A stretch of DNA of 64,000 nucleotides. It comes from Escherichia coli. Lineage in GTDB: Bacteria > Pseudomonadota > Gammaproteobacteria > Enterobacterales > Enterobacteriaceae. The stretch lies in NCBI RefSeq assembly GCF_003334305.1, contig NZ_QOWS01000006.1. One strand, given 5' to 3'. Positions 35,201-37,264 of this stretch are shown piece by piece (position 1 is the stretch's first letter; every line of letters begins with the position of its first letter). Position numbers and translations under genes: made by a program. The notes beneath the pieces were generated by a model, which saw nothing but the letters and a program-made list of their open reading frames with translations, had not been told where the DNA came from and did no database searches.

Positions 35201-35548
35201 TTATTTGACGTAGGCAAGCAGGCTTAAGGAATCGCGGGCCAGGGCTTTGCATTTTTTAGCGACGGGAATGCCAATGCCGCTGAGATCGCGGTAGCTGTCT
35301 TCACCGAGGGCTTTCATGTCGAAGGTGTCGTAATTACTGAGATCCCACTGGTTTTGCTGGGCGAAAAAGACCAGTGCGCGACGAATTTGCCCGTTAGGTA
35401 AGTTCTGGTAACCACAATCGTTCTTCAGAAAGACAAAAACTGCCGTTAAATCGGCCATATCTTCGGCTTCAGACTCGCTGAGTGCGTAACTGTTTGCGCA
35501 AACGGCCATCAGGCTGCCGAATAACACTGTTCTGAAAAACGTCTTCAT
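35201..35548 (-). CDS. yacC: periplasmic PulS/OutS-like (pilotin family) protein YacC
   Basis: ORF-track extended; native start MKTFFRTVLFGSLMAVCANSYA (signal peptide) gives 115 aa; family assignment from memory. Confidence 0.8.
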   Translation of the reverse strand: MKTFFRTVLFGSLMAVCANSYALSESEAEDMADLTAVFVFLKNDCGYQNLPNGQIRRALVFFAQQNQWDLSNYDTFDMKALGEDSYRDLSGIGIPVAKKCKALARDSLSLLAYVK

Positions 35549-35641
35549 TGCTTCTACCAGGGGCTTAAAGAAGATAAACGTTAGCACACTGCGAGCGAGG
35601 CGACGACCATTATTGTCGATTAAATTGTGTCTGCGGCTTGA

Positions 35642-35660
35642 CCTTCCCGTAAGGGGAAGG
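35642..35660 (+). promoter_or_regulatory. CueR (MerR-family) operator in cueO promoter
   Basis: Perfect dyad CCTTCCC-gtaag-GGGAAGG sitting between a TTGACC -35-like hexamer (35638..35643) and TATGCT -10-like hexamer, with a long MerR-type spacer; about 55 nt upstream of the cueO ATG. Confidence 0.8.
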
Positions 35661-35713
35661 ACTATGCTCAACGTTTGATTTTGTTTCGCCTGCTTAAGAA
35701 TAAGGAAATAACT

Positions 35714-37264
35714 ATGCAACGTCGTGATTTCTTAAAATATTCCGTCGCGCTGGGTGTGGCTTCAGCCTTGCCGCTGTGGAGCCGCGCAGTCTTTGCGGCG
35801 GAACGCCCAACGTTACCGATCCCTGATTTGCTCACGACCGATGCCCGTAATCGCATTCAGTTAACTATTGGCGCAGGTCAGTCTACCTTTGGCGAGAAAA
35901 CTGCAACTACCTGGGGCTATAACGGCAATCTGCTGGGGCCGGCGGTGAAATTACAGCGCGGCAAAGCGGTAACGGTTGATATCTATAACCAACTGACGGA
36001 AGAGACGACGTTGCACTGGCACGGGCTGGAAGTACCGGGTGAAGTCGACGGCGGCCCGCAGGGAATTATTCTGCCAGGTGGCAAGCGCTCGGTGACGTTG
36101 AACGTTGATCAACCTGCCGCTACTTGCTGGTTCCATCCACATCAACATGGCAAGACCGGGCGACAGGTGGCGATGGGGTTGGCTGGGCTGGTGGTAATTG
36201 AAGATGACGAGATCCTGAAATTAATGCTGCCAAAACAGTGGGGTATCGATGATGTTCCGGTGATTGTTCAGGATAAAAAATTTAACGCTGATGGGCAGAT
36301 TGATTATCAACTGGATGTGATGACCGCCGCCGTGGGCTGGTTTGGCGATACGCTGCTGACCAACGGTGCAATCTACCCACAACACGCTGCCCCGCGTGGT
36401 TGGCTGCGCCTGCGTTTGCTCAATGGCTGTAATGCCCGCTCGCTCAATTTCGCCACCAGCGACAATCGCCCGCTGTATGTGATTGCCAGCGACGGTGGTC
36501 TGCTACCTGAACCGGTGAAGGTGAGCGAGCTGCCGGTGCTGATGGGCGAGCGTTTTGAAGTGCTGGTGGAGGTTAACGACAACAAACCCTTTGACCTGGT
36601 GACGCTACCGGTCAGCCAGATGGGGATGGCGATTGCGCCGTTTGACAAGCCGCATCCGGTAATGCGGATTCAGCCGATTGCTATTAGTGCCTCCGGTGCT
36701 TTGCCAGACACATTAAGTAGCCTGCCTGCGTTACCTTCGCTGGAAGGGCTGACGGTACGCAAGCTGCAACTTTCTATGGACCCGATGCTCGATATGATGG
36801 GTATGCAGATGCTAATGGAGAAATATGGCGATCAGGCGATGGCTGGAATGGATCACAGCCAGATGATGGGCCATATGGGGCACGGTAATATGAATCATAT
36901 GAACCACGGCGGGAAGTTCGATTTCCACCATGCCAATAAAATCAACGGTCAGGCGTTTGATATGAATAAGCCGATGTTTGCGGCGGCGAAAGGGCAGTAC
37001 GAACGTTGGGTTATCTCTGGCGTGGGCGACATGATGCTGCATCCGTTCCATATTCACGGCACCCAGTTCCGTATCTTGTCAGAAAATGGCAAACCGCCAG
37101 CGGCTCATCGCGCGGGCTGGAAAGATACCGTTAAGGTAGAAGGCAATGTCAGTGAAGTGCTGGTGAAGTTTAATCACGACGCACCGAAAGAACATGCTTA
37201 TATGGCGCACTGCCATCTGCTGGAGCATGAAGATACGGGGATGATGTTAGGGTTTACGGTATAA
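35714..37264 (+). CDS. cueO: multicopper oxidase CueO (cuprous oxidase), Tat-secreted
   Basis: ORF-track extended; native start [28 protein letters not shown] (twin-arginine signal) gives 516 aa; Met-rich insert [46 protein letters not shown]; copper ligands [13 protein letters not shown]. Confidence 0.96.

Follow-up and report, generated by a model that had tools for sequence, protein, structure and literature searches.

Organization of the yacC–cueO Region

We analyzed a 64-kb stretch of the Escherichia coli chromosome (hereafter the window; coordinates count from its first letter), in which the listing of open reading frames gives the gene order speD-speE-yacC | cueO-gcd. The cueO coding sequence occupies positions 35714–37264 of the plus strand and encodes a multicopper oxidase with a twin-arginine signal peptide (MQRRDFLK...), as supported by the open reading frame listing and by RefSeq annotation at 100% identity. 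The yacC coding sequence (35201–35548, minus strand; 115 aa) runs divergently from it and was identified by the open reading frame listing, by annotation, and by tblastn. The yacC ATG (35548, minus strand) and the cueO ATG (35714) enclose an intergenic region of exactly 165 nt, 35549–35713. Around the operator described below, a 701-bp stretch matches many complete E. coli genomes at 100% identity, and these annotate the two genes as "yacC: YacC family pilotin-like protein" and "cueO: multicopper oxidase CueO." Given this annotation at 100% identity, the gene controlled from the intergenic region belongs to copper homeostasis.

The 165-nt region is 100% identical to a record of K-12 MG1655, and we transferred published positions with a constant offset (window = MG1655 − 101,369) anchored at the cueO ATG, MG1655 137,083. 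A Shine–Dalgarno-like AAGGAA at 35702–35707 (plus strand) ends 6 nt before the cueO ATG and is kept in Escherichia albertii and Citrobacter. The gene for the copper-responsive regulator considered here, cueR, lies outside the 64-kb window, some 377 kb away in MG1655; at the species level, it is present in 5,425 of 5,426 complete E. coli genomes.

The cueO Promoter and Its Operator

The central feature of the region is a 32-bp element at 35638–35669, which reads TTGACCTTCCCGTAAGGGGAAGGACTATGCTC. It begins with the hexamer TTGACC (35638–35643, plus strand), the same −35 as in the copA promoter, and contains a second hexamer, TATGCT (35663–35668, plus strand), as the −10. The latter is kept or nearly so in the cueO promoters of E. 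albertii, Citrobacter, Yersinia, Pantoea, and Rahnella. The spacer between the hexamers (35644–35662, plus strand) has a measured length of 19 bp. Within it lies a perfect inverted repeat, the unstranded CueR operator at 35642–35660, consisting of the arms CCTTCCC (35642–35648) and GGGAAGG (35654–35660) around the center GTAAG. The arms are 100% complementary and 5 nt apart, and the operator shares 2 bp with the −35 hexamer.

A sequence-only reading of the window had described this element as a textbook CueR-type operator, with a perfect 7-5-7 dyad placed in an elongated spacer between −35-like and −10-like hexamers. The dyad was confirmed at 35642–35660, and the coordinates and counts of that reading are all correct; the elongation of the spacer is equally real, its length being 19 bp and not 17 bp, and the mapped transcription start at 35674 fits the use of TATGCT. 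The assignment to the CueR type is borne out by the exact match to the CueR box, the register shared with copA, the annotation of the downstream gene as cueO, and the published literature. A standard sigma-70 scan of 35450–35800 allowing spacers of 16–18 nt found no promoter; as the hexamers lie 19 bp apart, the blank result is expected and does not count as evidence against the promoter.

Mapped Transcription Starts and the Divergent yacC Promoter

Two published start-site tables allowed us to place the transcription starts. The start expected for the CueR-type promoter is found on the plus strand at 35674 (MG1655 137,043) in the Cappable-seq table of PMC4782308, with a signal of 6.4. It is located 6 nt past TATGCT, the distance expected for a promoter of this type. 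A minor upstream start at 35633 (MG1655 137,002; plus strand) is listed independently in PMC3415461 and PMC4782308, in the latter with a signal of 1.8 vs. 6.4 for 137,043. This start is positioned 5 nt before the cueO −35 and has a poor −35 of its own, and a transcript initiated there would cross the operator and carry the dyad as a hairpin. The start-site experiments are not described as copper-induced, and the table of PMC3415461 gives solely the upstream start 35633 for cueO. For Klebsiella pneumoniae, the same study maps a cueO start 6 nt downstream of the −10 in a TTGACC–19 bp–TAAGCT promoter (PMC3415461). The right operator arm is degenerate in that genome, reading GGTAGGG instead of GGGAAGG (NC_009648, approximately 155,560–155,598). 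Since a start is mapped there, the orthologous cueO promoter is also used in K. pneumoniae despite the degenerate arm.

The sequence-only reading had further supposed that the same 165 nt must hold the promoter of yacC, and the data agree. The start-site table of PMC3415461 places the yacC start on the minus strand at 35571 (MG1655 136,940), 23 nt upstream of the yacC ATG. From this start, we placed an extended −10 element, TGcTAACGT, at 35578–35586 (minus strand; −15 to −7), with TAACGT at −12 to −7, TG at −15/−14, and a poor −35. In a cross-genus alignment, the block taaacgttagcac at this promoter is kept across Escherichia, Citrobacter, Pantoea, and Rahnella. The mapped start and the conserved extended −10 together establish the divergent yacC promoter as a separate extended −10 promoter that does not overlap the operator, the two starts lying 103 bp apart.

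Position 136,940 also precedes the start codon of speE (136,464) by 476 nt. The promoter of the speED operon was reportedly mapped by Xie, Tabor and Tabor in 1989 about 475 bp upstream of speE, in agreement with this start. The region additionally contains two AACGTT palindromes 93 bp apart, one at 35577–35582 overlapping the yacC −10 and the other at 35670–35675 overlapping the cueO start site. As the second copy is not kept in Citrobacter, the pair is probably a coincidence.

Conservation within E. coli and across Genera

The 32-bp element is held by 5,416 of 5,426 E. coli genomes and is 100% identical in 5,413 of the 5,416 matching records. The one single-base variant that we inspected in the surrounding 61 bp affects position 35636, outside the element. 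The uniformity extends to the whole 165-nt yacC–cueO region, which is at least 99% identical in 5,367 of 5,432 matching E. coli records, whereas the 701-bp stretch including the coding flanks reaches this level in just 1,782 of 5,432; the intergenic region is thus the more uniform of the two. With the entire 165 nt near-invariant, the within-species comparison cannot mark the operator as specially constrained.

For a comparison across species, we scanned representative genomes with the pattern TTGACCTTCC-N7-GGAAGG, retrieved at least 120 loci, and classified them by tblastn with CueO, YacC, CopA, and CueR and by record titles. Because the loci were retrieved by the operator sequence, they form a biased sample that is mute on how often cueO orthologues go without the box. 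Among the matches listed, the divergent yacC/cueO pair together with the operator was found in E. albertii, Citrobacter werkmanii, Yersinia artesiana, Pantoea sp. IMH, and Rahnella bruchi. In each of these five, the cueO operator has arms of 7 bp and a −10-like hexamer at 19 bp; the center varies (gtaag, tcaag, gttag, or cttag).

The same arrangement extends beyond cueO. Among the matches listed, we compared 124 operator sites from other genomes at the 19-bp spacing. In the −10 hexamer, position 2 is A at 118 of the 124 sites, and T occupies position 1 at 80 sites and position 6 at 83. Judging from this −10 pattern in the 124 listed sites, the CueR box is nearly always embedded in a promoter with a 19-bp spacer. 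The exact TTGACCTTCC-N7-GGAAGG box, again followed by a −10 at 19-bp spacing, was likewise found immediately before cueR-like MerR genes of gut Clostridia, Lachnospiraceae, and Faecalibacterium (14 loci among the matches listed), and the operator–promoter design accordingly reaches well past Proteobacteria.

Insertions of IS10/ISVsa5 at the cueO Promoter

Some E. coli records match just part of the cueO promoter, and among these are cases of ISVsa5 insertion. In strain ES4, an ISVsa5 element of the IS4 family (IS10-like) separates the cueO −10 from the start site, with the 9-bp sequence TGCTCAACG duplicated on its two sides. The same junction and the same TGCTCAACG duplication are present at the native cueO locus of YPE10, 210205630, and 2017-19-1CC. 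The 9-bp target corresponds to the unstranded positions 35665–35673, and the window itself carries no insertion. An insertion at 35665–35673 cuts cueO off from the CueR promoter.

In total, the ISVsa5–cueO junction was found in 17 records, representing 16 of 5,426 E. coli genomes, and in 10 PLSDB plasmids from E. coli and Escherichia fergusonii; many of the carriers come from pig, pork, and farm sources. The cueO alleles of the insertion strains differ at up to 46 of 1,551 nt (up to 3%), which suggests either more than one insertion event or spread via recombination. A composite unit of the form ISVsa5–cueO–truncated gcd–ISVsa5, whose second ISVsa5 copy sits inside gcd, is found on the plasmids pTBE6_2 (255 kb) and pE6474.2 (IncY, 98 kb); strain CP61_Sichuan carries it on the chromosome, at a non-native site.

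The insertion sequence adjoins cueO with the end closest to the start of its transposase. IS10 is said to have an outward promoter at this end (Simons and coworkers, 1983), and with that end facing cueO, the gene may be under the IS10 outward promoter and expressed independently of CueR. A literature search on ISVsa5/IS10 insertion at the cueO promoter found no paper describing it. Taken as a whole, we offer a tentative reading, which we consider possible but hold with less than even confidence: TGCTCAACG would be a recurrent IS10/ISVsa5 target whose occupation uncouples cueO from CueR and has given rise to a composite transposon, with selection, by copper feed additives for instance, favoring both the escape and the mobilization. 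If true, it could help to explain how genes for copper tolerance slip out of regulatory control and are spread by plasmids among E. coli associated with livestock.

Alternative Explanations for the Dyad

A palindrome of this kind could be a chance or structural feature without regulatory function, such as a hairpin or what is left of a terminator. Perfect 7-5-7 inverted repeats are indeed common in the 64-kb window, with 18 observed against approximately 3.9 expected under uniform base composition (the 18 repeats are probably terminators or REP-like elements), and symmetry by itself is therefore weak evidence. The sequence of the arms is far more telling: the CueR core CCTTCC-N7-GGAAGG has a single exact match in 64 kb and none in 100 dinucleotide-preserving shuffles. 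The exact search was used in place of one allowing up to two mismatches, which gave 2 matches against 1.7 expected and was uninformative. A terminator scan of the operator region found none, and no T-run follows the dyad; the register at copA is identical, the dyad is kept upstream of cueO in other genera while the central 5 nt vary, and the literature assigns it to CueR (PMC8169799, PMC1526738, PMC9396075). We give an accidental origin practically no credence. An additional role of the dyad in RNA, or as a roadblock, is also conceivable, as transcripts from the upstream start at 35633, seen in two datasets, would carry a 7-bp hairpin and bound CueR could block their synthesis. The predicted fold of 35633–35730 does include the CCUUCCC/GGGAAGG hairpin, but it is no more stable than those of shuffled sequences (z = −0.70) and matches no Rfam family. 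The start itself is weak with a poor −35, no U-run follows the hairpin, and the DNA-level explanation covers all of the conservation observed. We thus rejected the RNA-level reading as the main explanation, given the lack of an Rfam match and the z value of the fold, and find even a secondary role of this kind unlikely.

The operator could alternatively be used mainly by another regulator of the MerR family, of the ZntR, SoxR, or GolS type. Coinage-metal paralogues such as Salmonella GolS bind very similar boxes (PMC11672702, PMC7911910). The seventh arm pair is split among the 124 listed sites between C/G (27) and A/T (32), but the C/G form is the one seen here and is common to all six divergent yacC/cueO pairs examined. 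Perez Audero et al. (2010) reportedly found C/G at the seventh pair to be the form preferred by CueR. E. coli K-12 is not known to have GolS. Promoters of ZntR differ in the repeat and have a 20-bp spacer (PMC7911910), and the CueR-specific DNA-binding signal in cells is lost upon deletion of PcopA and PcueO (PMC9396075). The induction of PcueO by copper is also reported to disappear when cueR is deleted. Main use by a different family member is, on this evidence, very improbable, and CueR remains the regulator to which we assign the site.

Regulation of cueO by CueR

We are highly confident that the element at 35638–35669 is the CueR operator–promoter of cueO, built on the MerR plan. The operator is already known as one of the two canonical targets of CueR, and nothing in our results contradicts this explanation. 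CueR binding, copper induction, and the structural mechanism are taken from later papers' accounts of cueO regulation; our analyses contribute the anatomy of the element, the register shared with copA, the mapped start, the evidence that the element is conserved both among E. coli genomes and between genera, and the finding that the species carries cueR. A text search of the literature with the exact operator sequence matched no paper.

The published evidence is direct on several points. The CueR core is given as CCTTCC-N7-GGAAGG, and CueR controls copA and cueO via promoters with 19-bp spacers (PMC8169799). The yacC–yacK divergon was already listed with a CueR site and a 19-nt spacer in a 2006 study that cites Outten et al. 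2000 (PMC1526738). A PcueO-lacZ fusion is copper-induced, PcopA and PcueO are the CueR target promoters, and deletion of both abolishes the CueR-specific DNA binding in cells (PMC9396075); a single-molecule study likewise treated PcueO as a CueR operator site and deleted it (PMC4507017). By cryo-EM, the CueR dimer occupies the spacer from the side of the DNA that faces away from RNA polymerase and realigns the −35 and −10 by bending and undertwisting, while one CueR DNA-binding domain also contacts the non-conserved region of sigma-70 (PMC8169799). The sequence-only reading had proposed that cueO is copper-induced by DNA untwisting, and the induction is supported by these sources (PMC1526738, PMC9396075, PMC8169799). 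Of its wording, the undertwisting stands, and it is refined to bending or kinking together with undertwisting, plus the contact between CueR and the sigma-70 non-conserved region.

On this model, cueO is transcribed from a sigma-70 promoter whose −35 (TTGACC) is good and whose −10 (TATGCT) is fair, but whose 19-bp spacing is 2 bp too long and puts the hexamers out of helical phase. As the spacing is over-long and out of phase, RNA polymerase alone would use the promoter poorly. A CueR dimer would bind CCTTCCC-N5-GGGAAGG inside the spacer, on the DNA face opposite RNA polymerase, and in the absence of Cu(I) would keep the DNA in a repressed shape. Upon binding Cu(I), or Ag(I) or Au(I), CueR would kink and undertwist the center of the operator, and the spacer, thereby shortened and re-phased, would let sigma-70 reach both hexamers. 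Transcription would then proceed from approximately 35674 and yield the periplasmic multicopper oxidase CueO. For two decades, PcueO has served both as a model and as a component of copper biosensors, and its identification here carries little weight as a discovery.

Comparison with Known Systems

The published E. coli cueO (yacK) promoter is the same locus as the one described here and shows no difference from it, the window representing another E. coli strain. The closest relative is the promoter of copA. We read the copA–cueR region of MG1655 and found the copA promoter to be TTGACC-TTCCCCTTGCTGGAAGGTT-TAACCT with a 19-bp spacer. When the two promoters are aligned, CTTGACCTTCCC and GGAAGG fall in the same columns, and the operator is therefore placed identically with respect to the −35 and −10 in both. 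The comparison with the copA dyad, which the sequence-only reading had put forward as a check, bears that reading out: both promoters have TTGACC as the −35, CCTTCC-N7-GGAAGG at an equal offset and overlapping the −35, and a 19-bp spacer, and both drive a copper-homeostasis gene. Minor differences remain, beginning with the seventh arm pair, which is C...G in cueO, giving perfectly symmetric arms of 7 bp, and C...T in copA, leaving symmetric arms of only 6 bp. The two −10 hexamers, TATGCT (cueO) and TAACCT (copA), are not the same either, nor are the operator centers, and the 39-nt leader of cueO is a further difference.

More distantly, the MerR-controlled mer promoter of Tn21 and the ZntR-controlled zntA promoter share with cueO a dyad operator in an over-long spacer and activation by DNA distortion. 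They differ from cueO in the sequence of the repeats and in the metals to which they respond, and the spacer of zntA is 20 bp long.
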